DNA from: Candidatus Latescibacterota bacterium
Lineage (GTDB): Bacteria > Latescibacterota > UBA2968 > UBA8231
Length of the DNA stretch: 64,000 nucleotides
Assembly: GCA_965243025.1 (NCBI GenBank)
Contig: CBDETY010000003.1
Span: forward strand, 5,568,001-5,632,000
Direction: 5' to 3'
A program made the position numbers and the translations under genes. Of the stretch, positions 726-63,789 are shown one piece after another (positions within the stretch are counted from its first letter, which is position 1; each line of letters begins with the position of its first letter). The notes under the pieces are model-generated. The model saw only the letters and a list, made by a program, of their open reading frames with translations. It had not been told where the DNA came from and ran no database searches.

Positions 726-2090
726 ATGACTCACGGCACGGCGGGGGAAAACCCGCCCCGGTCCCTTCGGGAACAGCTTCTGGCGGGACAAATCGACCGC
801 CGCGGGTTCCTGTTCCGGTCCCTGATGGCCGGACTCGGGCTGGCCGGCGTCGGCGTCGCCGGACGTCTCCCAGCTGCCGGAGAGGATCGTCCCCTGACGC
901 CGACCTTCTATCAGTGGATCGAGGACCTGCACCCGGGCCTTCCCCGGGTCAACGCCCGCTTTCCCGGCATCGAGTACCGGATCGCGCCGGTGGAAGCTGC
1001 CGGCATCGAGCGCTTCGTCGCCGAGGCCAAGAAAGGCCGCAGCACCTGGGACGTGTACGTCGGCCAGACCCCGTTCGCCGAAATGACGGCGATGATCGAG
1101 GCAGGCGTCATCGAGCCCTGGGACGGCTACATTCCTCAAGAGGTGATCGACGACATCATCCCTGCGATCCGCGAGGAATGCACGGTCGACGGCAAGCTCT
1201 ACAGCTGGCCCTTCCTGCTCGACGTCATCGGCATGGGCTGGCACTCGGGGATCACGGCGCGCGCGGGAATCACCGGTCCGCCCCCCGGGATCTGGGAGCA
1301 GTACCTGGAAAATTCCCACGCCGTCGTCGACTCCGGGGCGGCTCCCTTCGGGGCGACCTTCGACGCCCACGGCTGGCGTTCGCTGGCGCCGTTCGCCCAC
1401 AGCCTGACCACCGACGTCTACACCCCGGAAGGACTGTTCGATTTCACCCACGACGCCGCGGTCGAGGCGCTGGTGCTGATGAAGAAGATCATGGCGGTCT
1501 CCCATCCCAACGTCCTGCTCGCCGGGGCCACCGACGGCGGCGTCAACAGCACCCCGGACGAGGATGCATTCGCCAAGCAGAGCGTCGGCTACTACACCAA
1601 GTACTTCAACGCCGCCCTGCGTTTCGCCCAGTACTGGGACGACCCGGAGGAGGTCGCCCTGGCGCCGCTTCCCAAGTTCGCCGGGGGAGAGGGCTCCACT
1701 GTCTTCTGGACGACCGGCTGCGCCCTGCTCCGGCACGGCGGCAACAAGGAGAAGGCGGCCGAGTACATCCGCTCCCTCACCTACGACCGCGAGCTGTGGA
1801 GGGAATCCCTGGCCGGCACCGAGACCGGCCGTCCCGGCCATCTGCCTCCGTACCGGTCGATCTACGCCGGGTGGAACGCGAACCGGCCGGACTGGCTGCC
1901 CGGCTTCGTCGCCCTGGTGCGCGGCCAGCTCGACCGGGCTCGCGCCATCCGCACGCACCTGTTCGGCCTGCAGCAGTTCTTCATCGGCCAGCCGCTCTGG
2001 GAGACCTACCTGAAGGGCGAGGAGGCGGACCCGCGGGCGGCGCTGGCCAACGCCGCCGCTGCGGTCCGTGCCGAGGTCGAGCGCGGGTGA
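726..2090 (+). CDS. Carbohydrate ABC transporter substrate-binding protein with Tat signal
   Basis: ATG at 726 after CAGGAAA. DRRGFL twin-arginine motif, DGKLYSWP motif typical of sugar SBPs, two permeases downstream. Confidence 0.85.
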   Translation: MTHGTAGENPPRSLREQLLAGQIDRRGFLFRSLMAGLGLAGVGVAGRLPAAGEDRPLTPTFYQWIEDLHPGLPRVNARFPGIEYRIAPVEAAGIERFVAEAKKGRSTWDVYVGQTPFAEMTAMIEAGVIEPWDGYIPQEVIDDIIPAIREECTVDGKLYSWPFLLDVIGMGWHSGITARAGITGPPPGIWEQYLENSHAVVDSGAAPFGATFDAHGWRSLAPFAHSLTTDVYTPEGLFDFTHDAAVEALVLMKKIMAVSHPNVLLAGATDGGVNSTPDEDAFAKQSVGYYTKYFNAALRFAQYWDDPEEVALAPLPKFAGGEGSTVFWTTGCALLRHGGNKEKAAEYIRSLTYDRELWRESLAGTETGRPGHLPPYRSIYAGWNANRPDWLPGFVALVRGQLDRARAIRTHLFGLQQFFIGQPLWETYLKGEEADPRAALANAAAAVRAEVERG

Positions 2091-2248
2091 TACCGGCGGT
2101 GGCACGGCGGGAAGCAGATGGGGAACGGGGCCGGCAACCGGCTGATGAAGTTGCTCCGCGGGGGGCCGCAGTTCGGAGGGGCTGTTCACGCGGCTGCCGC
2201 GTTCGCTTTCCCGCCGGCCGCATGAGCCGGCCGGGGATCTCCTGAGAC

Positions 2249-3169
2249 GTGGCTGCCGCCGGGCCCCATCCGGGGCGGATGCTCGCGGGCCGCTTCAGCA
2301 CCTGGTTTTTCCTGCTTCCCGCCCTGCTGTTCTTCGCCGGCTACCAGGTCTACCCGATCCTGCGGGTGACCTGGATCAGCTTCACCGACTTCGAGTACCT
2401 CGGCGGCGACCCGGCCGCCTGGGTCGGGCTCGGCAACTACGCCGAGGCGCTGCGGGACCCGCTGCTGTGGGCGGGGCTGGGCAGGGCTGCCTGGTTCACC
2501 CTGATGTTCCTGCCGGGCACCATCGTCTTCCCGCTGCTGCTGGCGATTCTCGTCGACCGCGTCGGCAACCGCACCGCCGCCACCGTGTACCGCGTGGTGC
2601 TGCTGATTCCCGCGGTGATCCCCAGCACCCTGGTCTTCGTCCTCTGGAAGTGGATGTACAACTACCAGATCGGGCCGATCAACCACTTCCTGGTCGAGGT
2701 CGCCGGCCTCTTCACCTACCACGACGCCCCGCAGTGGCTGGGGGGCACCTCGCTGACCCTGCCGGCGATCGCCGTCATGGAGATCTGGTGGGGCCTGGGG
2801 TACCACACCGTCTTCTTCCTCGCCGGCCTGGCGGCGATCCCGCGCGATCTCGTCGAGGCGGCGCGCGCCGACGGCGCCAACGAGTGGCAGCTGTTCCGGC
2901 ACGTCACCCTGCCGCGGCTGCAGCCGATCATGATGATCCTCGTCGTCCTGAGGTTCGGCTCGGCCATGGCCGTCATCGACGAGTACCTGATCTTCGGCGG
3001 CTTCAACCGCGCCTCGCCGACCTACACCTGGACCGTTTTCATGTACGACCAGGCCTTCAAGACCGGCCTCTGGCGCCAGGGGTTCGCCGCGGCCATCGGC
3101 ATGGTCGGGGCTCTGTTCATGATGGCGGTGGTCGCCGGCCTCGTCTACCTCTTCCGGTCGCGCGACTGA
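2249..3169 (+). CDS. Carbohydrate ABC transporter permease
   Basis: WVGLGNY and EAARADGA (EAA) motifs, multiple TM segments. Confidence 0.9.
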   Translation: MAAAGPHPGRMLAGRFSTWFFLLPALLFFAGYQVYPILRVTWISFTDFEYLGGDPAAWVGLGNYAEALRDPLLWAGLGRAAWFTLMFLPGTIVFPLLLAILVDRVGNRTAATVYRVVLLIPAVIPSTLVFVLWKWMYNYQIGPINHFLVEVAGLFTYHDAPQWLGGTSLTLPAIAVMEIWWGLGYHTVFFLAGLAAIPRDLVEAARADGANEWQLFRHVTLPRLQPIMMILVVLRFGSAMAVIDEYLIFGGFNRASPTYTWTVFMYDQAFKTGLWRQGFAAAIGMVGALFMMAVVAGLVYLFRSRD

Positions 3170-4011
3170 TGCGCCCGGCAGCGAAATGGCGCTGGGGGGC
3201 GATCGGCCGCCACGCCGCCATCAACTTCTTCGCCCTGGTGATCCTCCTGCCCCTGGCCTGGGTGCTGCTGCTGTCGGTGAAATCGCTGCCCGACTCGATG
3301 CGCGGAGCCCTGTGGCCGCGGCGCTTCGACTTCTCCCACTACGCTTACGTCTTCGACAAGATCGACACGCTGCCGGTCAACCTGTTCAACAGCGTGTACG
3401 TGACCGCGGCGACGGTGGCGATCACCGCGGCCTGCGCCGTCCTCGCCGGGTACGCCCTCGTGCACCTGAAGTTCCGCGGGGCGCCGGCGATCGTCACCCT
3501 GCTGCTCGCCTCGCTCTATTTCCCGACCCGCGTGGTCGCCATCATCACCATCTACGAAATCCAGGACTGGCTCGAGCTGATCAACAGCACCAGCGGCCTG
3601 ATCCTGCCCTACGTCACCCTCAACCTCGCGGTCAGCGTGCTGATCATGAGGAGCGTGTTCCAGCTGGTGCCGGCCGAGCTCATGGCCGCGGCGCGGATCG
3701 ACGGCGCCGGCCCCTGGCGCACCCTCTGGGTGGTCGGGCTGCCGCTGGCGAGGAACGGCATCGCCGTGGTCCTCATCGTCAACTTCGTGACCGCCTGGGG
3801 GGAGTACCTGCTCTGCTCGACGCTTACCAACGACCAGACGGCGCGCACCATGCCGGTTGTGCTCGCCTCGGCCCAGGGAGGGATGGGGCAGTGGGCGTGG
3901 CCGCGCATCGCCGCGGTCTACGCGCTCGTGGTGACCCCGGGGATCCTCGCCTTCGCCGCGGCGCAGAGGCTGTTCTTCAGGGGGCTGATGGAGGGGGCGC
4001 TGAAGGCCTGA
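3169..4011 (+). CDS. Carbohydrate ABC transporter permease
   Basis: TGATG overlap with upstream permease. AARIDGAG EAA-like motif. Real start lies inside track ORF 2467..4011. Confidence 0.9.
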   Translation: MRPAAKWRWGAIGRHAAINFFALVILLPLAWVLLLSVKSLPDSMRGALWPRRFDFSHYAYVFDKIDTLPVNLFNSVYVTAATVAITAACAVLAGYALVHLKFRGAPAIVTLLLASLYFPTRVVAIITIYEIQDWLELINSTSGLILPYVTLNLAVSVLIMRSVFQLVPAELMAAARIDGAGPWRTLWVVGLPLARNGIAVVLIVNFVTAWGEYLLCSTLTNDQTARTMPVVLASAQGGMGQWAWPRIAAVYALVVTPGILAFAAAQRLFFRGLMEGALKA

Positions 4012-4012
4012 G

Positions 4013-4070
4013 CGGCCCTCGCTCGCCGTACGCCCTCGGTACGGCTGGCTCAGGCGCCTTGCGAACCGGG
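4013..4070. repeat. Palindromic REP/MITE-like intergenic element
   Basis: GCCGTAC-N7-GTACGGC hairpin followed by GCTCAGGCGCCTTGCG. A related copy lies at about 36372-36494. Confidence 0.45.
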
Positions 4071-4120
4071 CACGGCCGCGAAAGGACGCAGTCGGTCCTC
4101 GCGCTCGTCGGTATGCCTTC

Positions 4121-4498
4121 TCAGGGGCGCAACGGCTGGACTTCCACGAAGACGCGGCCGTCCCGCAGAAACGCCGGGTAGGAGCGCACGCGCTCCCTGC
4201 CGGGGTCGGTGAGGGAGCGGCCGGTGGCGAGGTCGAACTCCCAGCCGTGCCAGGGGCAGCGGACGATCTCTCCCCGGCGGCCGTAGCGGATCTCCTCGCC
4301 CGGCTTGCAGGGCAGCGCCGTGCCGGTCAGGACGCCGTCGGAAAGGCGGGCACCCCGGTGGGAGCAGATGTCGCGCAGGGCGAAGACGCGCTCCCCGTCG
4401 CGCACGACCACGAGCGCCCGCCCGCCGGCCTCGACCCTTTTCAGCACCCCCGGCTCGAAGTCCCCGGCGGCGCCGACGTCAAGCGCGGTGGAAGTCAT
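4121..4498 (-). CDS. Rieske [2Fe-2S] ferredoxin
   Basis: CSH and CPWH Rieske ligands, GWEFDLATG. Confidence 0.92.
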   Translation of the reverse strand: MTSTALDVGAAGDFEPGVLKRVEAGGRALVVVRDGERVFALRDICSHRGARLSDGVLTGTALPCKPGEEIRYGRRGEIVRCPWHGWEFDLATGRSLTDPGRERVRSYPAFLRDGRVFVEVQPLRP

Positions 4499-8224: not shown

Positions 8225-9112
8225 TCACCATTCGGAGGGGGTGCGGGTGATCTCCAGTGAGGCTTTGATCCGGGCCCAGGAGACCGACTCGACGACCGAG
8301 CCGCCGCCCGCGTCAAGCAGAAGGCCGTCGCCGAATCCGTTCGGGGTAAAATCCGTAGGCCAGAAAAGGTTATTAAACTCTCCCCAATCCTCTGGTTCGG
8401 TATCCAGATCGTTGACCCCGATATTGAAGCCAACTGTCATCCCGGGGCTGAGATTGGAAGCGACACTTGCCTCTGGATCGTCCCCGAGCATCAAGTCAAA
8501 GGGGGTGATCGCGAACTCCACGACCCATACGGTGGGGTTCTCGCCTCGAGCGGCACCGCCACCCTCGGCATATGGGGGCTGGTCCATCCAGTCAGCACCG
8601 TCGTAGGCCCCCAAACCGACATGCAACCCCGCTGGGGCCTCGGGAACCGCACTATAGGACTGAACCTGCTCATAGTCCCTGCTAGCCCTGGCAGCTCCCC
8701 CGCTGTGGTCGCCGTCGATATTCAATGCGATGCAGTCATATCCGGATCGATCAATCTCGCCGCCTTCAAACCCACCGACAAACCGGTCGTCGCTAACCTG
8801 GGCACCGACATACAGCCTACCTGTGCCCCGATGCCAACCTAGCCAGACCCGAACGTCCCAATCGCCGGGTTCCCTTGGGGCGATGGTCAAGCCCTGGCGT
8901 GGAACCAATTCCAAACGGGTAAAACCCAGAAGATTCAAGGTGGGTTCACCGAGCACAGTTTCCCAATCCTCGATCGAGCCGTCTGTCAGGTCCATCATCT
9001 CCAGCATTTCATCGGTGATCTCGATGAATGGATAGACGACGTCCCCGACGTGGGCATGCACTCTCAGGCTGGCCCCCATGATACACAGCGCAACGATTAC
9101 CGGACGACTCAA
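8225..9112 (-). CDS. Secreted CBM9-like protein with C-terminal SWARIKA motif (paralog 1)
   Basis: Signal peptide ending VHA then H. DGSIEDW, DGDHSGG, GENP, GDGLLL and VESVSWARIKA motifs. Lower GC than flanks. Confidence 0.75.
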   Translation of the reverse strand: MSRPVIVALCIMGASLRVHAHVGDVVYPFIEITDEMLEMMDLTDGSIEDWETVLGEPTLNLLGFTRLELVPRQGLTIAPREPGDWDVRVWLGWHRGTGRLYVGAQVSDDRFVGGFEGGEIDRSGYDCIALNIDGDHSGGAARASRDYEQVQSYSAVPEAPAGLHVGLGAYDGADWMDQPPYAEGGGAARGENPTVWVVEFAITPFDLMLGDDPEASVASNLSPGMTVGFNIGVNDLDTEPEDWGEFNNLFWPTDFTPNGFGDGLLLDAGGGSVVESVSWARIKASLEITRTPSEW

Positions 9113-9263: not shown

Positions 9264-10184
9264 TCAGTCCTGTAGAGCTGCCTTGATCCGCGCCCACGTG
9301 ATCGACTCAACGACCGAGTCGTCCCCCGTTTCTCCGTCCGCCGGGAGCAGAAGACCATCGCCGAATCCGTCAGCTGTGGGATCGAATTCCGGAGCCCAAA
9401 CCAATCTATAGTACCCATCTAAATTTCCAGGCTTTGTGTCCGTATCTGTGAGTACCAAATCGAACCCGATTACTTTTCCTGCGCTGAGGTCTGAAGCTAC
9501 ACTTTCTTCGCTGTCGTTCCACAGCAGCCGGTCGAACGGCGTAACTGCAAACTCCACCACGTATACGACAGGGTTCTCGCCCTGGGCTATTCCTCCGCTC
9601 TCCGCATATGGAGGCTTCACCATCCAATCAGCCAAGTTACTCGTTGTCCACAAACCAAGGTGGTCCCCTTCGCGTGCCTCGGGGACGACAAGGTATATCT
9701 GGGCTTGCCGATTCCTTTGCAAATCGTTCCCCGAAAAGAACTCACCTCCACTATGATCCCCGTCGACCACAAGTCCAATGTTATCGTAATTCCCCCGAAA
9801 GTCATTGTCTCTGTTCTTAAACCCACCGATGTACACGTCGTCAATGACCTGAACCCCAAACCACAGCCGTCCCGTTTCCCCGTGCCAGCCTAACCAGACC
9901 TGAAGGTCCAGATCGCCGGGATCCCTTTCGGGGGTGTCGACAAAACGTGTATCGGCAGTGAAATCGAGAAGAGTCAGAGTCGGTTCACCCACGACAATCT
10001 CCCAGTCCTCTATCGAGCCATCCGTGAGGTCCATCATCTCCAGCATGTCGTCGGTGATCTCGGTGAACGGATAGACGACGTCCCGGACGTGGGCATGAAC
10101 TCTCATGGTTGCCGGCCCGACAGCCAGCGTCAAGGTCAACAGCCAAACCCGGGAAATCCCGACCGAGTCCTTTTCAATTCGCAT
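9264..10184 (-). CDS. Secreted CBM9-like protein with C-terminal TWARIKA motif (paralog 2)
   Basis: Last 306 aa of track ORF 9264..12200, aligns end to end with paralog 1. Start at MRIEKD. Confidence 0.75.
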   Translation of the reverse strand: MRIEKDSVGISRVWLLTLTLAVGPATMRVHAHVRDVVYPFTEITDDMLEMMDLTDGSIEDWEIVVGEPTLTLLDFTADTRFVDTPERDPGDLDLQVWLGWHGETGRLWFGVQVIDDVYIGGFKNRDNDFRGNYDNIGLVVDGDHSGGEFFSGNDLQRNRQAQIYLVVPEAREGDHLGLWTTSNLADWMVKPPYAESGGIAQGENPVVYVVEFAVTPFDRLLWNDSEESVASDLSAGKVIGFDLVLTDTDTKPGNLDGYYRLVWAPEFDPTADGFGDGLLLPADGETGDDSVVESITWARIKAALQD

Positions 10185-10324: not shown

Positions 10325-12250
10325 CTACATGGTGGACAGGATCCTGCCGTTTTCGACGGTGAGCGCGTAGACGACCGCCCACCCGCCCCCGGTCAGCACC
10401 TCCCCGAGGATCAGCCCGAGGAAGAAGGGCTTGAGCGTCTGGAACAGCTTGCCGCCGCCGACGTGGAGGATGATGGCCTTGAGGATCCAGGCGATCAGCG
10501 CGGAGAACCAGATGGAGCTGGTCAGCCAGCCGAAGGCGATGGTGAAGCCGATCGGGTGCAGGGGCCACCAGTACCAGCGGTGCTGTCCCCACATCAGCAG
10601 GAACTCGAAGGCCCCCCCGATCCCCTTGAACAGCCAGCCGCGCATGTTGGCCCCGGGCATCTCTGTCGAGGTGGGGCCGATGTAGGGCCAGCCGTGGGCA
10701 CCGGCCCACTGCAGCAGGTACAGGTTGATGGCGCCGTTGCTGTAGGCGAGCTCGAGGGTGGTCCACAGCGACGCCAGCAGGCTGGCTACCAGGGCGATCA
10801 TCAGGCCCCAGAACAGCCGCTTTTTCGATCCCTTCACCGACTCGGCGAGCTTGAGGCCGTTGGAGGCGGCGACCATCGGCGAGGTGCGCGATTCCCCCTG
10901 CCAGATGAAGGTGTAGGTGAGGGCGACCAGGCCCTTGGTCCCGAGCAACGATGTACCGAACCCGGAGATGATGAAGTAGGCGGGAACGATCGGGCTGCGC
11001 GCCGTGGGAACCCCCGCGGTGGCGACGACGCGGGCAACCAGGGCGAAGAAGATGACGCTGACGACGAGCAGGATCGGGACGTACAGCCCCGGCACCCCGG
11101 AGCGCCACAGCCAGAAGCCGATGGCGGCGAAGCTGGCGACAAAGCCGACGACGGCGGTGCGGTAGCGCAGCACCTCCTCGCTGTCGTCGACCCCGTTGCG
11201 CGGGTTCCAGACGGTGCGCATCACGTCCCTGAGGTGGGCGCGGGCGCTCCACAGGCCGAAGAGGATGAAGACGATCACCGCCCCGGTCTGCTGGTGCGTG
11301 AGGTCGGCGGCGGGAGGGTACGACTCGTAGGCGCTCAGGCGCTCGGTGCTGGCGATGCCGAAGACGTTGAAGATCCCCTCCTGGATCTTGCAGAAGACGT
11401 AGAAGAACCAGACGCTGAAGGTGAGGTCGAGGCTGGCGAGGTAGAAGAAGCCGATGTAGGCGAACACGACCCTCATCGGCAGGTTGACGGTTCCCCGGAA
11501 CATCGGGAAGCTGGCGCCGAGGTCGGGGTCGGGCAGGAAGGGGAAGTGGAAGTTGAGCCCCTTCATGGTCAGGTAGATGAAGGGCAGGGAGAACCCCACC
11601 CACATGACCGGGTTGCGGAACAGGGGCGGGACCTTCGACACCGCCCCCTCCTCGCCGGCGAGCATTCCCTGCGGCAGCTGCATCATCGGGTAGGCGAGGC
11701 GCTCGTGGGTCGACCACTGGCGGTGCAGGATGCCGCTGAGACAGATGAGCATGAACCCCATGACCACCACCAGCCCGAGCCACCAGGCCATCGGCTCTAC
11801 CCACACCTCCCAGGGGATCGGGGTCCCTTTGGGCAGACCCTCGTAGTATCCCTTGATGGCCTCGGGGTCCTGGGGCACCATCCACTGCGGAATGTAGTCG
11901 AAGAAGAGCTCTTCGAAGCGGTTTTCGGGGGTAGCGTAGTAGAAGGGGTAGACGATGGTGCCGATCAGAAAGAACATCAGCCCCCAGGTCGGCACGGTCA
12001 CCGCCATCAGCAGCATGCAGTAGATGAGGACTAGGTCGGGTTTCGACAGGGCGAGCCGGCGGCCGAGGAAGGCGACGACGATGTTGGCGAAGATGACGCA
12101 GGCGAAGAAGAGCAGGGCCCCGGGCGAGGAGGGGTTGAACCCGATCCAGTGGTACTGGAAGACGGTGACGTACGGGGCGACGACCCCGATCGCCAGGCAC
12201 AGGAGCGTGCCGATGCCGAGTCCCTTCAGGCTGAAGGGGGATTTGCTCAC
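10325..12250 (-). CDS. Large polytopic membrane protein, DUF6785/DUF6784-like putative transporter (copy A)
   Basis: About 640 aa, many TMs. ERLAYP, WWPLHPIG and PFFLGLILG motifs. GTG start matches paralog B. Confidence 0.75.
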   Translation of the reverse strand: MSKSPFSLKGLGIGTLLCLAIGVVAPYVTVFQYHWIGFNPSSPGALLFFACVIFANIVVAFLGRRLALSKPDLVLIYCMLLMAVTVPTWGLMFFLIGTIVYPFYYATPENRFEELFFDYIPQWMVPQDPEAIKGYYEGLPKGTPIPWEVWVEPMAWWLGLVVVMGFMLICLSGILHRQWSTHERLAYPMMQLPQGMLAGEEGAVSKVPPLFRNPVMWVGFSLPFIYLTMKGLNFHFPFLPDPDLGASFPMFRGTVNLPMRVVFAYIGFFYLASLDLTFSVWFFYVFCKIQEGIFNVFGIASTERLSAYESYPPAADLTHQQTGAVIVFILFGLWSARAHLRDVMRTVWNPRNGVDDSEEVLRYRTAVVGFVASFAAIGFWLWRSGVPGLYVPILLVVSVIFFALVARVVATAGVPTARSPIVPAYFIISGFGTSLLGTKGLVALTYTFIWQGESRTSPMVAASNGLKLAESVKGSKKRLFWGLMIALVASLLASLWTTLELAYSNGAINLYLLQWAGAHGWPYIGPTSTEMPGANMRGWLFKGIGGAFEFLLMWGQHRWYWWPLHPIGFTIAFGWLTSSIWFSALIAWILKAIILHVGGGKLFQTLKPFFLGLILGEVLTGGGWAVVYALTVENGRILSTM

Positions 12251-12431
12251 GTCGCTGTTTTCACCGGTTGACTGCGGATTATGAGGCGGGCGGTTCGCGC
12301 TTACGATAGTGGACCGTTGCGCCCGATTGTGCAAAACCGGGGGCAGGGCGGCCGGGTGCCCTGGCAACTACCGGGCGCCGGGCTGCCCGGCCCGTCCGCG
12401 ATGGACGCCTGACTACCCTCGCATGCCCGGT

Positions 12432-14354
12432 CTACATGATGGACAGCACCCTGCCGTACTCGACCGTCAGGGAGTAGACGACCACCCACCCCCCGGCGGT
12501 CAGCACCTCTCCGAGGATCAGCCCGAGGAAGAAGGGCTTGAGCGTCTGGAACAGCTTGCCGCCGCCGACGTGGAGGATGACGGCCTTGAGGACCCAGGCG
12601 ATCAGCGCCGAGAACCAGACGGAGCTGGTCAGCCAGCCGAAGGCGACGGCGAAGCCGATCGGGTGCAGGGGCCACCAGTGCCAGCGGTGCTGTCCCCACA
12701 TCAGCAGGAACTCGAAGGCCCCCCCGATTCCCCTGAACAGCCAGCCGCGCATGTTGGCCTCCGGCATGGCGTTCGCGGTCCCGCCAATCTGGGGCCAGCA
12801 GTGGCCCCCGGCCAGTTGCAGAAGGGGGAGGTTGACGGCGCCGTTGCTGTAGGCGAGCTCGAGGGTGGTCCAGAGCGACGCCAGCAGGCTGGCGGCCAGG
12901 GCGATCATCAGGCCCCAGAACAGCCGCTTTTTCGATCCCTTCACCGACTCGGCGAGCTTGAGGCCGTTGGAGGCGGCGACCATCGGCGAGGTGCGCGACT
13001 CCCCCTGCCAGATGAAGGTGAAAGTCAGCGCCACCAGGCCCTTGGTTCCCAGCATCGAGGTGCCGAACCCGGAGATGACGAAGTAGGCGGGAACGATCGG
13101 GCTGCGCGTCGTCGGGACGCCCGCGGTGGCGACGACGCGGGCCACCAGGACGAAGAAGACGATGCTGACGACGAGCAGGACCGGGACGTACAGCCCCGGA
13201 ACCCCGGAGCGCCACAGCCAGAAGCCGATGGCGGCGAAGCTGGCGAGAAAGCCGAAGACGGCAGTGCGGTAGCGCAGCAGCTCCTCGCTGTCGTCGACCC
13301 CTTTGCGGGGGTTCCAGGCGCTGCGCATGACGTCCCGCAGGTGGGCGCGTGCGCTCCACAGGCCGAAGAGGATGAAGACGATCGCCGCCCCGGTCTGCTG
13401 ATGCACGAGGTCGGCGATGGGAGGCCACTCGTAGCCGCTGAGGCGCTCGGTGCTGGCGACGCCGAAGACGTTGAAGATCCCCTCCTGGACCTTGTAGAAG
13501 AGGAAGAAGAACCAGACGCTGAAGGTCAGGTCGAGGCTGGCGAGGTAGAAGAAGCCGATGTAGGCGAACACGACCCTTATCGGCAGGTACACGCTGCCCC
13601 GGAGCACCCAGGGGTCGGAGTCGAGGTCGGGGTCGGGAAGGAAGGGGAAGTGGAAGTTGAGCCCCTTCATGGTCAGGTAGACGAAGGGCAGGGAGAACCC
13701 CACCCACATGACCGGGTTGCGGAACAGGGGCGCGATTTTCGACCCGGCCCCCTCTTCGCCGTCGAGCATTCCCTGCGGCAGCTGCATCATCGGGTAGGCG
13801 AGGCGCTCGTGGGTCGACCACTGGCGATGGAGGATGCCGCTGAGGCAGATGAGCATGAACCCCATGACCACCACCAGCCCGAGCCACCAGGCCATCGGCT
13901 CTATCCACACCTCCCATGGGATCGGCGTCCCCCTGGGCAGGCCCTCGTAGTATCCCTTGATGGCCTCCGGGTCCCGGGGCACCATCCACTGCGGGATGTA
14001 GTCGAAGAACAGGTCTTCGAAGCGGTTTTCGGGGGTGGCGAAGTAGAAGGGGTATACGATGGTGCCGATCAGGAAGAACATCAGCCCCCAGGTCGGCACG
14101 GTCACCGCCATCAGCAGCATGCAGTAGATGAGGACGAGGTCGGGCTTGGACAGGGCGAGCCGGCGGCCGAGGAAGGCGACGGCGATGTTGGCGAAGATGA
14201 CGCAGGCGAAGAAGAACAGCGCCCCGGGAGAGGAGGGGTTGAAGCCGATCCGGTGGTAGGAGAAGACCGCCGCGTACGGGGCGACGACCCCGATCGCCAG
14301 GCACAGGAGCGTGCCGATGCCGAGTCCCTTCAGGCTGAAGGGGGATTTGCCCAC
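12432..14354 (-). CDS. Large polytopic membrane protein, DUF6785/DUF6784-like (copy B)
   Basis: Tandem paralog of copy A, nearly identical outside a few segments. Confidence 0.75.
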   Translation of the reverse strand: MGKSPFSLKGLGIGTLLCLAIGVVAPYAAVFSYHRIGFNPSSPGALFFFACVIFANIAVAFLGRRLALSKPDLVLIYCMLLMAVTVPTWGLMFFLIGTIVYPFYFATPENRFEDLFFDYIPQWMVPRDPEAIKGYYEGLPRGTPIPWEVWIEPMAWWLGLVVVMGFMLICLSGILHRQWSTHERLAYPMMQLPQGMLDGEEGAGSKIAPLFRNPVMWVGFSLPFVYLTMKGLNFHFPFLPDPDLDSDPWVLRGSVYLPIRVVFAYIGFFYLASLDLTFSVWFFFLFYKVQEGIFNVFGVASTERLSGYEWPPIADLVHQQTGAAIVFILFGLWSARAHLRDVMRSAWNPRKGVDDSEELLRYRTAVFGFLASFAAIGFWLWRSGVPGLYVPVLLVVSIVFFVLVARVVATAGVPTTRSPIVPAYFVISGFGTSMLGTKGLVALTFTFIWQGESRTSPMVAASNGLKLAESVKGSKKRLFWGLMIALAASLLASLWTTLELAYSNGAVNLPLLQLAGGHCWPQIGGTANAMPEANMRGWLFRGIGGAFEFLLMWGQHRWHWWPLHPIGFAVAFGWLTSSVWFSALIAWVLKAVILHVGGGKLFQTLKPFFLGLILGEVLTAGGWVVVYSLTVEYGRVLSIM

Positions 14355-30634: not shown

Positions 30635-31597
30635 TCAGTCCCTGTCGGCAAAAGAACCATTCCCGGGAAAACCTGTTTCCAGGGAAGCCTTGATGCGTCC
30701 CCAGGAGACGGATTGAACCGCGGAGTCGCCAGGCTTCCCGCCGGGGCCCAGCAGCAGCCCATCGGCAAAGAAGTCCGCTCCTTCCCCTCCAGTACCTTCA
30801 TCATTCTGATCAGACAGAAAGAACCGGGCATTTCGCGTCGAGTCCCTGTCCCAGTCATTCACTAAAAAATCGAACCCGATCACGCTGCCTTCGGAAAACC
30901 GGGATACGACACTGTCCCCGGGGTTCAACGCGTCCAACTGGTCGAAGCAGGTCGCAAAGAATTCGATCACCCAGAATGTGGGGTTCTCGCCGACAACTCC
31001 ACCACCTCCAAAGGCGAACGGCGGCTCCAATATCCAGGCAGCATCCACGAACTGTGATACAAAAGGCAGATCAACCAGAGGTCCGCTTGCCACCCGAGAA
31101 ATCGCCTCGTAATGCTGCGCCTGCCTGTTGTTGTTTGGGTTGAGCTCAGGAGTCTCATTCGGTCCGTGAGCATTGATGAATTCGTATGGCCCCCCGGAAT
31201 GATCGCCATCCACAAGCAGTGCGATGCTGTCGGCAAAATAGAAAATGGGAGGGTCGTCATTGCGATACACGTCGTCGGCGAATTCGGTAGCGGCATGGAT
31301 CTTCCCCTCCTTCGTCCATCCCAGCCAGATGCGGAAATCGAGGTTGGAAGGATCGTACTGGTCGTAGGAGATCAGCGATGGATGCGACATCAGAGTGAAG
31401 TCCAAAGGCGACAGCGTCGGCTCGCCCAGGGCATCGACCCAATCCTCAACGTGGCCGTCCAGTTCAATGTCCGCCAGAGTTTCCGGCGACAGGTAGGCAA
31501 TTGGAAACAGACGGTCCCCCATGTGGGCGCCGGAAGGGAGGGAATTGGCCAGAACTGCACAAAGCACCAAGCTGAAAACCGGACGGTTGCAGGTCAT
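30635..31597 (-). CDS. Secreted CBM9-like protein with C-terminal SWGRIKA motif (paralog 3)
   Basis: SGA then HMG after the signal peptide. DGDHSGG, GENP, ADGLLL and VQSVSWGRIKA motifs. Confidence 0.75.
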   Translation of the reverse strand: MTCNRPVFSLVLCAVLANSLPSGAHMGDRLFPIAYLSPETLADIELDGHVEDWVDALGEPTLSPLDFTLMSHPSLISYDQYDPSNLDFRIWLGWTKEGKIHAATEFADDVYRNDDPPIFYFADSIALLVDGDHSGGPYEFINAHGPNETPELNPNNNRQAQHYEAISRVASGPLVDLPFVSQFVDAAWILEPPFAFGGGGVVGENPTFWVIEFFATCFDQLDALNPGDSVVSRFSEGSVIGFDFLVNDWDRDSTRNARFFLSDQNDEGTGGEGADFFADGLLLGPGGKPGDSAVQSVSWGRIKASLETGFPGNGSFADRD

Positions 31598-31678
31598 GAA
31601 TGACTCCCAATCTCCGTTCAGTATGGTTCTCGTTCGAGCGGAAAAACGCAACCCTTTTTGAACACTCTCCTGCTAGAC

Positions 31679-53073: not shown

Positions 53074-53376
53074 ATGAGCCCTGAAGCTGTAGCCATAGCC
53101 GGTGTCGGCGTCACCCTGCTGGCGGTCATGGTACCGCTGCAGCTGTCCGTAGCGCGGCGAATCGATCGCGTGGAGGATCGCCGTAACGAACGCATGGACC
53201 GTATGGACGGCCGTATGGACCGTATGGACGGCCGGATGGAGCGCCTCGAGGCACGGATCGAGGAACTGGCGCGCGACCTGCGCGCCATGGCTGAGCGGGT
53301 TGCCCGTATCGAGGGCGCGGTGTGCGGACCCTGGCGGCCCCCCGAGCCGGACCCGCCCCAGGGGAATCCGGCATGA
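53074..53376 (+). CDS. Small N-terminally anchored coiled-coil protein (copy 1)
   Basis: AAGGAGG RBS, TM helix, RMDRMDG heptad repeats, C-terminal ERVARIEGAVCGPWRPPEPDP. Confidence 0.8.
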   Translation: MSPEAVAIAGVGVTLLAVMVPLQLSVARRIDRVEDRRNERMDRMDGRMDRMDGRMERLEARIEELARDLRAMAERVARIEGAVCGPWRPPEPDPPQGNPA

Positions 53377-53645
53377 GCCCCGAAGCTGTAGCCATAGTCG
53401 GTGTCGGCGTCACCCTGCTGGCCGTGCTGGTGCCCCTGCAGCTGTCGATAGGTCGGCGCATCGACCGGCGGATCGATCGTCTGGAGGACCGTCTGAACGG
53501 CCGCATGGACCGCCTCGAGAGCAGGATCGAGGAGCTGGCGCGGGATCTGGGCGCCCTTGCCGAGCGGGTGGCCCGCATCGAAGGCGCGGTGTGCGGGCCC
53601 TGGCGGCCCCCCGAACCGGACCCGTCGCAGGGGAACCCGGCATGA
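53373..53645 (+). CDS. Small N-terminally anchored coiled-coil protein (copy 2)
   Basis: ATGA overlap, paralog of copy 1. Confidence 0.8.
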   Translation: MSPEAVAIVGVGVTLLAVLVPLQLSIGRRIDRRIDRLEDRLNGRMDRLESRIEELARDLGALAERVARIEGAVCGPWRPPEPDPSQGNPA

Positions 53646-54043
53646 CCCCTGAAACCCTGACCGTAGTCGGGTGCAGTGTCGCCATCCTGGCCGTCATGGT
53701 TACGCTGCACGTTCGCCTTACGGCCGACGTGGCCGAACTGCGGCGCGAGTTGCGCGGCGAGGTGGCCGGAGTGCGCGGCGAGGTGGCCGGAGTGCGCGGC
53801 GAGGTGGCCGGAGTGCGGAGCGAGTTGCGCGGCGATATGGCCGAACTGCGGACCGAGTTGCGCGGCGATATGGCCGAACTGCGGACCGAGTTGCGCGGCG
53901 ACCTGGCGGAAGTGCGCGGGGACCTGGCGGCCTTGAGCCGGGACGTAGCCAGTCAGGGCGAGCGGCTCGCGCGCATCGAAGGGGCCGTGTTGGGACCGTG
54001 GCGCCCCCCGGAACCGGACCCCGCAGGAGAGAAACCTGCGTGA
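53642..54043 (+). CDS. Small N-terminally anchored coiled-coil protein (copy 3)
   Basis: ATGA overlap. 21-nt (VRGEVAG) and 33-nt (ELRGDMAELRT) tandem repeats, similar C-terminus. Confidence 0.8.
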   Translation: MTPETLTVVGCSVAILAVMVTLHVRLTADVAELRRELRGEVAGVRGEVAGVRGEVAGVRSELRGDMAELRTELRGDMAELRTELRGDLAEVRGDLAALSRDVASQGERLARIEGAVLGPWRPPEPDPAGEKPA

Positions 54044-60627: not shown

Positions 60628-61230
60628 ATGCCGAGAATACAGGTAATCCCGGTGGAGCGTGCGACCGGCGCCCTCAAGGCCGAGTACGACAAGGCGACCG
60701 GCCGCGCCGGGCGGGTGTGGAACATCGTCAGCGTCATGAGCTGCAATCCCCCGGTCCTGCGGGATGCGATCCGGTTCTACGGCAGCGTGATGCACGGGCC
60801 GTCGCCGCTGACCCGCAGGCAGCGGGAGATGCTCGCCGTCGTCGTCTCCGCCCGCAACCACTGCGTCTACTGAACCCGTTCCCACGCCCACGATCTCCGG
60901 GAAGAGATCGCCGCATCCGGTGACATGAGCGCCGCCGAGGCCGACGCCTTCGTCCACGCGGTCGCGCGCGACTGGCGAAGCGCCCCGCTCGACGGGCAGG
61001 ACCGCGAGCTGTGCGAGTTCGCCGAGCGGCTCACCGGCGATTCGGAGGCCGTGGACGAGGGAGGCATAGACGCCCTGCGCCGCTGCGGCCTCGACGACCG
61101 CGCCATTCACGACGCCACGCAGGTGGTGGCGTTCTTCAACTACATCAACCGCGTCGCCTCCGCCCTCGGGGTGGAGCAGGAGACCTTCGTCCGCGCCTGG
61201 GAGCAGGCGGCCGCGCCCTCCTCCCGGTAG
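60628..61230 (+). CDS. AhpD/CMD-like peroxidase-related selenoprotein (UGA = Sec at 60871-60873)
   Basis: REMLAVVVSARNHCVY-UGA-TRSH continues in frame into ORF 60925..61230 (FFNYINR). CxxU replaces CxxC. Confidence 0.85.
60891..60910 (+). promoter_or_regulatory. Candidate bacterial SECIS hairpin
   Basis: CGATCTC-CGGGAA-GAGATCG, G-rich apical loop about 24 nt after the UGA. Confidence 0.65.
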
Positions 61231-61478: not shown

Positions 61479-62447
61479 TTACTCCATCTCCAGGGCGGCC
61501 TTGATCCGGCCCCAGGAAACCGACTCGACCGCGGTGCCTTCCGGTTCGGCGTCGGCGGACAGCAGCAGCCCGTCGAGAAAGACATCTGCTTGAATTCTAA
61601 ATACGGCTAAGGTCGCTTCCCATGTCCCGTCAGACATGGCTTCGGGTATCCAGTACAACCTCCCTCCCTCTTCCTCATTATTATCATCCCCGTCAACCAC
61701 TGTAATCCCGAAGCCGATCACTTTTCCCGCCTCCAGATCGCTGACCTCGTTTTTTCCGGCGCTGTCCCTTCCTCCGCCCCAATGGTCGAACGGGGTGACG
61801 TACAGCTCGATCACGCTGATGGTCGGGTTTTCCCCGGCAACGCCACCGCCTCCCTCTCCGTAGGGAGGCAGGGCATTCCAGGCGAACTTTTCTGTCCTCA
61901 CTCTGGTTGAAAAGTCATCCAGAGTCGGGCCGCCTACGGTGCGGGCAATCGCCTCGTAGCTCTGAGTTTGCCCCAGAAGCATCTCCCACTCTTCCACTGT
62001 CGTACTGTTGACAGCGCCTGCACCGCCGCTGTGGTCCCCGTCGATGGCCAGGGAGATACTGTCATATGCCCGCATAGGCCAACCCACGCTGTAGTCGTGG
62101 TTGTTCATGTACAGGTCGTCGCTGCCAATGAAGGCCACATAGAAACGGGCAGGGTCGTCGTGCCAGGCAAGCCAGATGCGGAAGTCCAGGTCGGACGGAT
62201 CGGGGCTCACTCCACCTATGAAATCCAGCAGGGTCATTGCCGGCTCGCCGATCAGGTCATACCACTCGTCCACCGACCCGTCGTCGAGCCGGATCTGTTC
62301 CAGCATCTCGCCGGTGAGTTCCGGAATCGGGTACACGCGGCCGCCGGAATGGGCGTCTGCCCGAGTAGACAGCCAGGCGGAGATGGGGAGCGAGAGGAGC
62401 AGTAAGAGGGTGGTGAACCATTGTTTCCTGACCGAGGTAAGAATCAT
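61479..62447 (-). CDS. Secreted CBM9-like protein with C-terminal SWGRIKA motif (paralog 4)
   Basis: ADA then HSG after the signal peptide, DGDHSGG and TAVESVSWGRIKA motifs. Leader AAGGCTGGAGACTC-ATG shared with paralog 5. Confidence 0.78.
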   Translation of the reverse strand: MILTSVRKQWFTTLLLLLSLPISAWLSTRADAHSGGRVYPIPELTGEMLEQIRLDDGSVDEWYDLIGEPAMTLLDFIGGVSPDPSDLDFRIWLAWHDDPARFYVAFIGSDDLYMNNHDYSVGWPMRAYDSISLAIDGDHSGGAGAVNSTTVEEWEMLLGQTQSYEAIARTVGGPTLDDFSTRVRTEKFAWNALPPYGEGGGGVAGENPTISVIELYVTPFDHWGGGRDSAGKNEVSDLEAGKVIGFGITVVDGDDNNEEEGGRLYWIPEAMSDGTWEATLAVFRIQADVFLDGLLLSADAEPEGTAVESVSWGRIKAALEME

Positions 62448-62610
62448 GAGTCTCCAGCCTTTCTCAACGCTGAACATCGCCAGACCGATCTTCGGCTACT
62501 ATCCAAATTTCCTCTGCAACAGTTATCCAAACCTCCCGCTGAAAAAGGATGACCAAGCTGTCGATGCCCGTCGAAATAAACGGAGGCGTCAGGTATGACC
62601 GAGGCACCGG

Positions 62611-63573
62611 CTACTTCATCTCCAGGGCGGCCTTGATCCGGCCCCAGGAAACCGACTCGACCGCGGTGCCTTCCGGTTCGGCGTCGGCGGACAGCAGCAG
62701 CCCGTCGAGAAAGACATCCGCTCGGATTTTATCTATGGCCCTGTCCGCGTCCTTTCCGTCAGACATGGCTTCTGGTATCCAATACAGGCTCCCCCCGTCC
62801 TCTTCAAAATCCACCTCAACCACCGAAATCCCAAAGCCGATGACCTGCCTCGCGGTCAGATCGCTGGGCAGGATCTCCCCGGGCATGTGAAATCCCTCCC
62901 AGCGGTCGAACGGGGTGACGTACAGCTCGATCACGCTGATGGTCGGGTTTTCCCCGGCGGCGCCGCCGCCCGATTCACCCCAGGGAGGCAGGGCCGTCCA
63001 GGCCAACGCTTCCGTTTGGTGCCTGGTGGCGGAGTCGTCCAGGTTCGGACCGCCGGCGGTGCGCGCAATAGCCTGGTATACCTGTGTTTGCCCCAGAAGC
63101 GTCTCCCACTCTTCCAATGTCGTACTGTTGACAGCGCCCCCACCGCCGCTGTGGTCCCCGTCGATGGCCAACACGATACTGTCATTGGCACCCATATGAT
63201 CTCGGATAGAAGTCCACCAATCCACGCTGTAGTCGTGGGTGTTCTTGTATTGATCGTCGCTGGCAATGAAGGCCACATAGAAACGGGCCGGGTCTTCGTG
63301 CCAGGCAAGCCAGATGCGGAAGTCCAGGTCGGACGGATCGGGGTTCAGGACCCCTCCCCCTTTGAAATCCAGCAAAGTCATGGCCGGCTCGCCGATCAGG
63401 TCATACCACTCGTCCACCGACCCGTCGTCGAGACGGATCTGTTCCAGCATCTCGCCGGTGAGTTCCGGAATCGGGTACACGCGGCCGCCGGAATGGGCGT
63501 TGGCCGAGATGGGGAGCGAAAGGAGCAGCAAGAGGGTGGTGTACCATTGTTTCCGAACCAATGTAGGAGTCAT
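62611..63573 (-). CDS. Secreted CBM9-like protein with C-terminal SWGRIKA motif (paralog 5)
   Basis: Tandem paralog of 61479..62447. Confidence 0.78.
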   Translation of the reverse strand: MTPTLVRKQWYTTLLLLLSLPISANAHSGGRVYPIPELTGEMLEQIRLDDGSVDEWYDLIGEPAMTLLDFKGGGVLNPDPSDLDFRIWLAWHEDPARFYVAFIASDDQYKNTHDYSVDWWTSIRDHMGANDSIVLAIDGDHSGGGGAVNSTTLEEWETLLGQTQVYQAIARTAGGPNLDDSATRHQTEALAWTALPPWGESGGGAAGENPTISVIELYVTPFDRWEGFHMPGEILPSDLTARQVIGFGISVVEVDFEEDGGSLYWIPEAMSDGKDADRAIDKIRADVFLDGLLLSADAEPEGTAVESVSWGRIKAALEMK

Positions 63574-63789
63574 GAGTCTCCAGCCTTAGGAAAAAAAACG
63601 GACGAGCGCCCGCCCCGGGCGTGAAAGGGTGTGGTTCACCCAAAGGAGACGCAAAAGGCATGCCTGTACATGGGCGGGGCTCAATCAGTTTGTGCCTGTT
63701 GTGCGTAACCTGTTGTTTATCATTGGGGTTATTTAAATTTCATTTTTCTCGCCTTCGTCCTTGTCGCCATCGGCTCCCCCTTGGTCTCG

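Follow-up and report, generated by a model that had tools for sequence, protein, structure and literature searches.

The stretch of DNA analysed here, a window of 64,000 nucleotides, contains two neighbouring paralogous genes on the minus strand, par4 (61479..62447) and par5 (62611..63573), which encode predicted secreted proteins of 322 and 320 aa, respectively. They are arranged head-to-tail with a spacing of 1.1 kb, and the genes around the pair are ordinary metabolic ones. The two proteins are identical at 249 of 330 positions (75%) with 18 gap positions, and the aligned coding DNA has 149 differences over 936 sites (84.1% identity). A longer reading of par4 opens at an in-frame upstream ATG at 62477 (ORF 61479-62477, 332 aa); the ATG at 62447 is the likely start, as it aligns with the start of par5 and both follow AAGGCTGGAGACTC (GGAG). 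The predicted signal peptide of par4 (62352..62447, minus strand) ends in ...RADA before His33, a position kept in 60 of the 71 paralogs of the same genome, and the predicted signal peptide of par5 (63496..63573, minus strand) ends in ...SANA before His27. The GG-N10-GC motif GGCATGCCTTTTGC (63651..63664, minus strand), which precedes the start of par5 by about 90 nt, resembles a sigma-54 promoter and is noted as a mere lead. Similar motifs scoring at least 8 of 11 precede 13/71 family genes and occur in 140/2000 random 250-nt stretches (5/71 and 22/2000 for scores of at least 9), a weak enrichment. The same strand of the window also carries a second tandem pair, par1 (8225..9112, 295 aa) and par2 (9264..10184), more similar to each other in their 5' block, and par3 (30635..31651, 338 aa), a solitary member.

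These genes belong to a family of about 71-106 copies, which accounts for ~1% of a Latescibacterota genome of 6.8 Mb detected in sponge metagenomes and is also present in related Latescibacterota. The family has no name and no Pfam or NCBIfam model: the NCBIfam search returned 0 families for four paralogs, and in Pfam the carbohydrate-binding module family CBM9 (PF06452) was not matched by par4 or par5, while 3 of 52 relatives matched it below the cut-off (best E 0.033). The AlphaFold2 model of par4 (pLDDT 75.7) was aligned by VIA-align with the CBM9 beta-sandwiches 7nwn of Caldicellulosiruptor and 1i82_A of Thermotoga maritima Xyn10A over 186 of 195 and 186 of 189 residues (Z 18.8/18.2, rmsd 2.5 A), Foldseek matched it to CBM9 with E 5e-9, and PF06452 is assigned to 13-100% of members of the nearest ESM-Atlas clusters. 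A weak Pfam WW_2 match below the cut-off (E 0.027) and the sole match from a profile search of PDB sequences, 9h8i_A (E 0.0094 over 86 residues), were both taken as chance. The family proteins are probably extracytoplasmic ligand binders, with glycans as the likely ligands, and loop insertions on the constant CBM9 sandwich would determine their specificity. The published full texts searched describe neither the family nor a CBM9/DOMON fold that bears a histidine brace; in the part of PMC12993501 that was accessible, the words 'paralog' and 'expanded' have 0 occurrences. Eight CBM9-annotated proteins of a sponge metaproteome are assigned to other genera in the accessible part of the respective report (PMC6081418).

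A preliminary description of this DNA had pointed to an antibody-like architecture, in which blocks of par4 and par5 identical even at silent sites alternate with short segments that barely align. Recounting confirmed the blocks themselves. The 3' block of par4 (61485..61586, minus strand), which encodes ADVFLDGLLLSADAEPEGTAVESVSWGRIKAALEM, is identical to its par5 partner (62617..62718, minus strand) at 102 of 102 nt, and the tail of the genes has a pS of 0.00. The 5' block of par4 (62239..62356, minus strand) agrees with that of par5 (63383..63500, minus strand) at 117 of 118 nt, in exact runs of 50 and 67 nt, and low silent divergence in this region extends across codons 1-160. Between the two ends lies a divergent core, comprising codons 161-287 of par4 (61587..61967, minus strand) by max-chi-square partition and codons 163-285 of par5 (62719..63087, minus strand). 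The three pairs of peptides proposed as hypervariable loops were all found in the core, in indel-bearing stretches between predicted strands (in par4 at 61746-61781, 61656-61694 and 61590-61628); all six variable segments fall between strands of the AlphaFold2 model, and the indels between the genes are of 3-18 nt. The variable segments had also been called AT-richer, which holds only in part, with GC contents of 0.46-0.71 (n=10) and 0.67-0.68 in the blocks, but fails for one par5 segment, whose 0.71 exceeds that of the blocks.

Silent divergence along the pair is strongly heterogeneous. The uniform dS that would have spoken against the preliminary description was not seen: pS varies from 0.00 to 0.66 between windows. 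The third-position difference is 0.39 inside codons 161-287 and 0.10 outside, and in home-made permutation analogues of the breakpoint and fragment tests the best two-breakpoint partition was matched by 0/300 permutations and the 102-nt identical run attained in 0/500 shuffles of differences. Since a simple shuffle is blind to codon position, permutations of third positions were added. Over the 304 third positions at which 32 other members of the subfamily vary, par4 and par5 agree for up to 34 positions in a row (P = 0.0077, 20,000 permutations), and the pair differs at 21/185 such positions in the flanks and 46/119 in the centre (Fisher 3.6e-8, with boundaries picked post hoc after inspection of the data). 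In the centre, par4 and par5 are separated by a third-position distance of 0.39, close to the minimum of 0.42 to an unrelated subfamily member, whereas in the flanks the corresponding values are 0.11 and 0.32. Part of the contrast between the ends and the core reflects constraint, because the N- and C-terminal parts are the most conserved ones family-wide and third-position identity is raised there in non-adjacent family pairs as well (0.63/0.68 at the ends vs 0.46-0.55).

The phylogenetic trees of the two regions conflict with each other. For aa 33-118, par4 and par5 are sisters with moderate support (87/79), as are the protein clusters P0003 and P0006 from other assemblies (94/93). For aa 119-290, par5 is the sister of P0006 (100/99), P0003-P0005 form one clade (94/96), and par4 is nearest to the latter. 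A par4+par5 clade, fixed ahead of viewing the tree, was rejected for the centre by the AU test (lnL difference 47.2, p 0.0013). In agreement with these trees, par5 and P0006 have 83% identity over the variable core, and both have the loop EGFHMPGEILP; the core of par4 resembles P0003-P0005 and a tandem copy in a genome of the same genus (locus L011 of genome G001), the latter with nucleotide identity of 0.79-0.93. The repeated sisterhood of P0003 and P0006 at the N-terminus, compared as protein between clusters whose longest contigs differ, is suggestive of a second instance of concerted evolution. Of 168 pattern matches to par4 in JGI metagenome contigs, 0 were confirmed as relatives.

At the DNA level, the tracts could be compared with one other genome, in which the G001 locus holds a tandem pair of its own. 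In the 5' third, par4 is closer to par5 (nucleotide identity 0.87-0.99) than to G001 copy 2 (0.56-0.83), and the two G001 copies are likewise similar to each other (0.79-0.91). In codons ~94-264 the corresponding values are 0.79-0.93 for par4 and G001 copy 2 and 0.66-0.90 for par4 and par5; the contrast is clearest in codons ~167 to 244, where the orthologue is the closer one (0.83-0.91 vs 0.66-0.83). The loops have a pS of 0.47 between par4 and par5 and of 0.23 between par4 and G001 copy 2, and the order is reversed in the N-terminal non-loop codons (0.12 and 0.30). Frameshifts and a ~240-nt extra stretch at the G001 locus, which come from long-read errors or decay, inflate pN in this comparison.

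Mosaics of the same kind are seen elsewhere. The similar 5' block that the preliminary description saw in par1 and par2 is present, with nucleotide identity of 0.88 over codons 25-60; beyond it, in windows that begin at columns 61-265 of the alignment, identity falls to 0.47-0.69, and the longest exact run of the pair is only 20 nt. Other tandem neighbours in the genome have identical runs of 386, 350, 157, 135 and 122 nt, each reached in at most 1/500 shuffles, and the third-position identity of the pair g503926-g505000 is end-heavy along the gene (0.83/0.75/0.68/0.49/0.46/0.40/1.00). Homogenisation on the scale of the whole family was not found in N-terminal and core trees of 34 of the 71 members of this genome and 34 members of a sister species (from 39 ORF hits in 20 fetched regions, a part of the matches in that genome). 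The members of the two species interleave, with 19 label changes in the N-terminal tree and 20 in the core tree; thus, the repertoire is old and inherited and not quickly regenerated. Homogenisation is local to tandem neighbours.

The above analysis points to interlocus gene conversion, by which the ends of the neighbouring genes par4 and par5 would have been made alike, a reading to which we assign a probability of roughly 0.8. Heterogeneous silent divergence, conflict between the trees of different regions, and tracts in which copies of one genome are more alike than copies of different genomes were all observed. Under this explanation, par4 and par5 would be two old and distinct members of a large secreted family with the CBM9 fold, between which non-reciprocal homologous recombination, the mechanism we infer, repeatedly copies the 5' part (~codons 1-160, most recently ~codons 31-70) and the last ~100 nt from gene to gene. 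The core, codons 161-287, would stay outside conversion and retain the ancient divergence of both lineages, and its divergence and indels may themselves limit the spread of the tracts. The orthologues in other genomes suggest that the flanks were overwritten rather than the core replaced. The DNA identical at silent sites would therefore represent young conversion tracts, and the barely alignable loops old, stable, lineage-specific sequence, since the orthologues retain them. Of the mechanisms named in the preliminary description gene conversion thus stands, but in a role opposite to diversification, as it homogenises the ends of old divergent neighbours.

The mosaic by itself is silent on which part moved, so that par4 and par5 could instead be young duplicates in one or both of which the central segment was replaced by one from other members, in a diversifying shuffle of loops. 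The genome offers ~100 potential donors, and in several windows of the centre a third paralog is no more distant from par4 or par5 than these two are from one another (0.71 vs 0.65 in one of them). However, a recent import would leave near-identity, and across the central windows nucleotide identity to the closest other paralog is no more than 0.52-0.87; a search of the same genome found no donor cassette with a core nearly identical to that of par4 or par5. Moreover, both core types have orthologues elsewhere with different flanks (P0006 for par5; P0003-P0005 and G001 copy 2 for par4), and therefore the cores predate the split of the species and the identity of the flanks postdates it. With the G001 pair repeating the similarity in the flanks only, exchange of cassettes seems to us unlikely. 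The antibody-like reading shares with it the assumption of young duplicates, whose recent origin would explain the identical framework, and adds surface loops driven apart by strong positive selection or by targeted hypermutation. It accounts for the clustering of differences in indel-bearing segments between strands and for a pN peak of 0.44 in the window from column 231 of the par4/par5 alignment (~par4 codon 223). Selection at the protein level is nevertheless disfavoured, because synonymous divergence in the loops climbs together with the non-synonymous one (pS 0.47, pN 0.26), and the ratio of 0.56 is not above 1. In addition, the loops are conserved in orthologues, the AU test rejects the sisterhood of par4 and par5 in the core, and the family trees of the two species are interleaved. 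Polymorphism in the loops, proposed as a check in the preliminary description, was sought on contigs of three other sponge-metagenome runs, where strain differences are not focused on the named loops (1/18 listed positions in par4 and 1/12 in par5), although contigs drop rare variants. Targeted hypermutation of the type driven by diversity-generating retroelements (DGRs) would leave a reverse transcriptase near the variable gene, a template repeat and adenine-specific change, a signature that was not found in the genome. Adenine accounts for 43/143 differing sites in par4 and 33/143 in par5, without bias; indels are present, and neither a reverse transcriptase nor a template repeat accompanies the pair. 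The one reverse transcriptase (PF00078) match in the genome (C3:1032098-1032790) is ~4.6 Mb away, and blastn detected no similarity to family genes in its 9.7-kb surroundings. On these grounds, hypervariable loops under positive selection are very improbable in par4 and par5, while it is still plausible that the family at large forms an extensive repertoire of ligand binders built on one constant scaffold.

Two further explanations concern the identical blocks alone. Selection on the nucleotide sequence, through mRNA structure, a regulatory element or extreme codon preference, would fit the location of the blocks at gene ends, the site of translation-initiation and termination signals, and the somewhat raised third-position identity there in non-adjacent paralogs. 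It is contradicted by the identity of only 0.56-0.83 between par4 and G001 copy 2 over the 5' third and by the 0.53-0.91 of the best other paralog of the same genome over the flank windows: the blocks vary freely between genomes and non-neighbouring paralogs, and therefore no fixed nucleotide sequence is needed, which makes this selection an extremely improbable cause. Collapse or polishing of the assembly across paralogs could also produce identical blocks, and the short-read contigs of all four runs examined in Logan do break at the shared blocks, with none of the records listed spanning the whole par4-par5 stretch. The blocks, however, are just 102-118 nt long and lie within a 6.78-Mb contig, and the spikes of depth at them match expectation, as their words are common to many paralogs. 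In run X15, which may be the source sample, 8/8 listed pieces have 0 differences, and in runs X1, X2 and X5 most listed pieces have few differences, with 4-6 in some short ones. An independent genome has the same mosaic. We give an artefact of assembly next to no credence.

In 60/71 paralogs of the genome and 106/128 scorable representatives, the amino-acid sequence predicts a mature N-terminal His after A or G at position -1 (A, V or S at -3), and this residue may form a metal site together with His139. His139 covaries with His33: the combinations HH, H-nonH, nonH-H and nonH-nonH occur in 60/0/5/6 paralogs of the genome and in 105/1/12/10 representatives, although Fisher P values are overstated because the rows are related to each other. 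In a far-reaching and rather doubtful extension, the family would consist not of passive lectins but of secreted carbohydrate-active proteins of a new class, which depend on a metal and may be redox-active. The mature N-terminal His and His139 of the DGDHSGG loop would form a pair on a CBM9/DOMON sandwich, either in the manner of a histidine brace or as ligands of haem, in a family expanded to ~100 copies in sponge-symbiont Latescibacterota; gene conversion between tandem neighbours would then keep intact both the metal-site module at the N-terminus and the SWGRIKASLE tail at the C-terminus, and the core loops would be a stable inherited repertoire of substrate specificities for glycans of the host matrix. 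The conserved N-terminal His and the unique C-terminal tail mark the family as one that may recognise glycans of the host, or act on them chemically, within the sponge holobiont.

Histidine-brace copper proteins include LPMOs, CopC and YcnI, according to the abstract of PMC10952591. The par4-type proteins are similar to them as predicted secreted beta-sandwiches with a putative mature His right after an AxA signal-peptidase site and a second conserved His that appears to be lost along with the first, but differ in their CBM9/DOMON-like fold, which is not that of LPMO, CopC or YcnI, and in that their metal site is putative. They share the modelled beta-sandwich with CBM9 (PF06452); unlike CBM9 domains, they are stand-alone and secreted rather than modules of glycoside hydrolases, have loops ~75 residues longer in total, a family-specific C-terminal tail ...SVSWGRIKASLE, and a His conserved as the predicted first residue of the mature chain, and occur in ~100 copies per genome.

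The targets of DGRs, such as variable proteins of the Bordetella phage Mtd type, resemble the putative ligand binders par4 and par5 in that only local segments vary on an otherwise constant scaffold, but the par4/par5 pair lacks the reverse transcriptase, template repeat and adenine-specific pattern, contains indels, and keeps its segments stable among orthologues. In Neisseria pilE/pilS and Borrelia vlsE, conversion brings variable cassettes into an expression site. Conversion within a multigene family and a conserved framework with variable segments are common to these systems, to antibody or VLR frameworks and to par4/par5, in which, unlike in pilE/pilS and vlsE, conversion overwrites the conserved ends, the variable core is orthologous across genomes, and a search of the same genome revealed no silent cassettes whose cores match. 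The closest parallel is the concerted evolution of bacterial genes by interlocus gene conversion, known for tufA/tufB in Salmonella and for rRNA operons. As in those cases, copies of the same genome are closer to each other than to their orthologues in defined tracts, with silent identity, tree conflict and copies close together; in par4/par5, however, conversion is confined to the gene ends and spares a core of 127 codons, the copies retain distinct functions, and only neighbours are homogenised, not the family at large. What resembled programmed diversification is instead a clean small-scale case of partial concerted evolution, in which an identical framework with unalignable loops can come from homogenisation of the ends without hypervariability.

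The tandem genes par4 (61479-62477 as the longest ORF) and par5 (ORF 62611-63573) are arranged head-to-tail on the minus strand. The likely start of par4 is the ATG at 62447, which is aligned with the par5 start, and AAGGCTGGAGACTC is found upstream of both. The proteins are identical in 249 of 330 positions (75%, 18 gap positions), and the aligned coding DNA has 149 differences over 936 sites (84.1% identity). The shared blocks claimed in the preliminary description were recovered, with 102/102 identical nucleotides in the 3' block (61485-61586 versus 62617-62718) and 117/118 in the 5' block (62239-62356 versus 63383-63500), as were the three peptide pairs quoted there, which fall within indel-bearing stretches. 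The variable segments are only in part AT-richer, as the GC content is 0.67-0.68 in the blocks and between 0.46 and 0.71 in ten variable segments. The surrounding genes are ordinary (a CBS-domain protein, a CMD-family protein, PhyH, 2-hydroxyacid dehydrogenase, and E1 dehydrogenase subunits), and, in line with the earlier remark that no recombinase is visible, these neighbors include neither a recombinase nor a mobile element. A CMD/AhpD-like gene is apparently split into ORFs 60628-60873 and 60925-61230 (plus strand), of which only the first matches Pfam CMD and the second has no family; either a frameshift or the presence of two small genes could explain the split.

Shuffling the par4/par5 differences 500 times never produced an identical run of 102 nt. 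Since such shuffling is blind to codon position, the test was redone on third codon positions, using 304 sites variable among the other 32 members of a 34-member subfamily; with 67 differences between par4 and par5, the longest identical run is 34 (P = 0.0077, 20,000 permutations). A max-chi-square scan with two breakpoints over 312 shared third positions delimited a divergent segment at par4 codons 161-287, where the third-position difference is 0.39 versus 0.10 outside, a partition reached by none of 300 permutations. Over the entire gene, Nei-Gojobori estimates give pS 0.27, pN 0.12, and omega 0.37. The sliding-window check proposed earlier gave pS from 0.00 to 0.66 in 20-codon windows, and together with the above partition it demonstrates that dS along the pair is far from uniform.

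Three observations discriminate between recently duplicated genes with fast-evolving loops and old paralogs whose ends have been homogenised. First, in the divergent core the third-position difference between par4 and par5 (0.39) is barely below the minimum to other family members (0.42), whereas in the shared flanks the pair is far closer (0.11 versus a minimum of 0.32). Second, the par5 loops, e.g. RWEG-FHMPGEILPSDLTA, are common to P0006, and the par4 versions are common to P0003-P0005, all of them related protein clusters from other assemblies. Trees built separately for the two regions are in conflict: residues 33-118 pair par4 with par5 (support 87/79) and P0003 with P0006 (94/93), and residues 119-290 group par5 with P0006 (100/99) and P0003 to P0005 together (94/96); for the core, a par4+par5 clade is rejected by the AU test (p 0.0013). 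Finally, a tandem pair in G001, a same-genus Latescibacterota MAG (locus L011), has the par4 orthologue as its second copy. In the 5' third, nucleotide identity is 0.87-0.99 between par4 and par5, 0.56-0.83 between par4 and its orthologue, and 0.79-0.91 between the two G001 neighbors. The order is reversed mid-gene, most clearly at about codons 167-244, where par4 is 0.83-0.91 identical to its orthologue versus 0.66-0.83 to par5. In agreement with this, synonymous divergence in the loops is 0.47 for par4/par5 versus 0.23 for par4 and the orthologue, and in N-terminal non-loop codons it is 0.12 versus 0.30; the G001 copies are frameshifted, so their pN is unreliable. The G001 pair (L011, G001:C10:892384-899504) is interrupted at 1963-4121 by several frameshifts, one stop, and a ~240-nt extra stretch, which are either long-read assembly errors or signs of decaying copies.

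End-heavy identity is seen in many of the 37 family gene pairs within 5 kb of each other in the same genome. In particular, last-bin third-position identity is 1.00 in all six pairs of a four-gene array (494935-499073), the pair g503926/g505000 has identities of 0.83, 0.75, 0.68, 0.49, 0.46, 0.40, and 1.00 by bin, and other tandem pairs contain identical runs of 386, 350, 157, 135, and 122 nt. The block noted earlier as similar in par1 and par2 belongs to a mosaic that is an older version of the par4/par5 pattern. The homogenisation is local. In trees of 34 subfamily members from this genome and 34 from a sister species, switches of genome label number 19 (N-terminal region) and 20 (core). This means that orthologues exist for most paralogs and that the repertoire has been passed down by descent instead of being generated anew. 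A 3.07-kb inverted segmental duplication (G000:C3:3344797-3347862 versus 6065302-6068367), its copies 99.7% identical and 2.7 Mb apart, carries a family gene that is 100% identical in both (g3346565 and g6065643).

Searching the genome with a profile of four paralogs from the window yielded 106 ORFs of at least 120 aa. We retained 71 as clean full-length models (score >=150, profile coverage from <=30 to >=310, start codon upstream, the last rule removing par1); they total 68,595 nt, or 1.0% of the chromosome, and 44 have a family neighbor within 5 kb. Their mean GC content is 0.58 (range 0.48-0.65) versus 0.654 for the genome, and the GC dips in the window at 8-10, 30-32, and 62-64 kb are family genes. 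With par4 as a query, matches were found in 18 of 41 related genomes, with at least 54 in each of the two same-genus genomes and 31 and 13 in two other genera. Of 24 genomes of the same family 17 have a match, and all 16 genomes sampled from three further families in the class lack one. A word-seeded search of public databases gave 779 matching proteins, the best 120 of which carry no Pfam domain or name; representatives at 50% identity number 986 (E <=1e-3), 709 (E <=1e-10), and 335 (E <=1e-30). The window proteins have no Pfam or NCBIfam match, CBM9_1 is touched by 3 of 52 relatives (best E 0.033), and no paper describing the family turned up in full-text literature searches.

The AlphaFold2 model of par4 (pLDDT 75.7, pTM 0.77, tail from residue 307 on below 50) matched the CBM9 structure 1i82_A in Foldseek (E 5e-9), and VIA-align placed it on 7nwn (Z 18.8) and 1i82_A (Z 18.2), in each case with 186 aligned residues at an rmsd of 2.5 A. 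Farther matches are the haem-binding DOMON-like subunits NxrC and ethylbenzene dehydrogenase gamma (each Z 10.3), and the nearest ESM-Atlas clusters, from Latescibacterota, Gemmatimonadota, and Poribacteria, carry PF06452. Since 186 of 263 modelled residues are aligned, the surplus length lies in loops, and all six par4/par5-variable segments are between predicted strands. As the family is below the Pfam sequence threshold, we call it CBM9-fold rather than a CBM9 family member; judging by the model, it is an uncharacterised stand-alone branch of this fold. The C-terminal tail ...AVESVSWGRIKASLE (61479-61530 in par4, 62611-62662 in par5; pLDDT ~34), preceded by a Gly/Pro/Asp/Glu-rich linker, has 92 motif matches in the genome, 81 in family ORFs and 11 outside, 7 of which resemble diverged members or fragments. 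By its occurrence the tail is essentially family-specific, and it may serve in sorting or docking.

His directly follows A/G (-1) and A/V/S (-3) in 60 of 71 paralogs and 106 of 128 scorable representatives (149 in all), after a median of 23 residues, so the mature protein is predicted to start with His: His33 in par4 (62352-62354) and His27 in par5 (63493-63495). Among the 71 paralogs this predicted N-terminus is His in 60 and Gln in 9. This His covaries with His139 in the invariant DGDHSGG loop, and the two are lost together: both, only the first, only the second, and neither are His in 60/0/5/6 paralogs and 105/1/12/10 representatives, though the Fisher P of 3e-8 is overstated because the rows are related. 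Asp136, Asp138, Glu214, Trp62, and Trp95 show little or no variation. The copper histidine brace, as outlined in PMC10952591, consists of an N-terminal His and a second His. We hypothesize that His33 and His139 form a putative histidine-brace-type pair, and the conservation of these and the invariant residues suggests a metal or cofactor site on the CBM9 fold.

A sigma-54-like GG-N10-GC motif, GGCATGCCTTTTGC (63651-63664, minus strand), is located ~90 nt upstream of par5; such motifs scoring at least 9/11 precede 5 of 71 family genes versus 22 of 2000 random stretches, a weak enrichment. One family gene (L034, G000:C3:3343500-3348500) is flanked by a NarL/LuxR-type response-regulator gene (Response_reg and GerE, L034 1439-2239) and a GerE-only fragment (4016-4486). 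Several other family arrays (near C3:421514, 457515, 466333, 2332326, 3285828, and 4337511) are accompanied by copies of the ~1-kb regulator sequence with 84-93% identity, and thus some arrays seem to travel with their own regulator. Elsewhere in the window, a 21-nt-phased repeat present in about ten overlapping copies (53704-53950, inside the plus-strand ORF 53300-54043) encodes a series of ELRGEVAGVRG-like heptad-type units. Direct repeats of 89-93% identity occur at 9-308 and 1578-1877 (1.6-kb spacing) and at 10325-11607 and 12432-13711 (2.1 kb); the latter, in and beside a 680-aa membrane-protein ORF (10325-12367, minus strand), suggest another tandem gene duplication.

Identical blocks may also arise by assembly collapse. 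The shared blocks are ~100-120 nt long and lie within a 6.78-Mb contig, and contigs from sponge-metagenome runs break at them, with depth spikes there. Runs of several studies contain this stretch or that of a closely related strain, and contigs of four runs were aligned to it: X15, possibly the source sample, has 0 differences in all 8 listed pieces, and X1, X2, and X5 have few in most, with 4-6 in some short ones. The read-level check of loop polymorphism, carried out here on contigs, found 1 of 18 listed variant positions inside the three named loops of par4 and 1 of 12 in par5, about as expected from loop length. Because contigs lose rare variants and none covers the whole locus, these data argue weakly against collapse and, likewise, against hypervariability of the loops. 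Strong positive selection on the loops, suggested at the outset, is not borne out, as pN/pS there is 0.56, which gives no sign of it by this crude measure. A diversity-generating retroelement can be excluded: the genome has a single reverse transcriptase match, ~4.6 Mb away, whose surroundings share no sequence with family genes, adenine occupies 43 and 33 of 143 differing par4/par5 sites (no bias), and indels are among the differences.

The contrast of flanks and core in the trees, at silent sites, and in comparison with the same-genus genome argues for gene conversion among the options first offered. Interlocus conversion has probably overwritten the ends of par4 and par5 once the two lineages, and also the species, had diverged, and the cores are old and orthologous across genomes. 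The mechanism is standard, partial concerted evolution of tandem paralogs. The antibody-like diversification of the preliminary description is not supported; conversion here acts in the opposite sense, the reverse of both cassette-type variation and antibody-like diversification.
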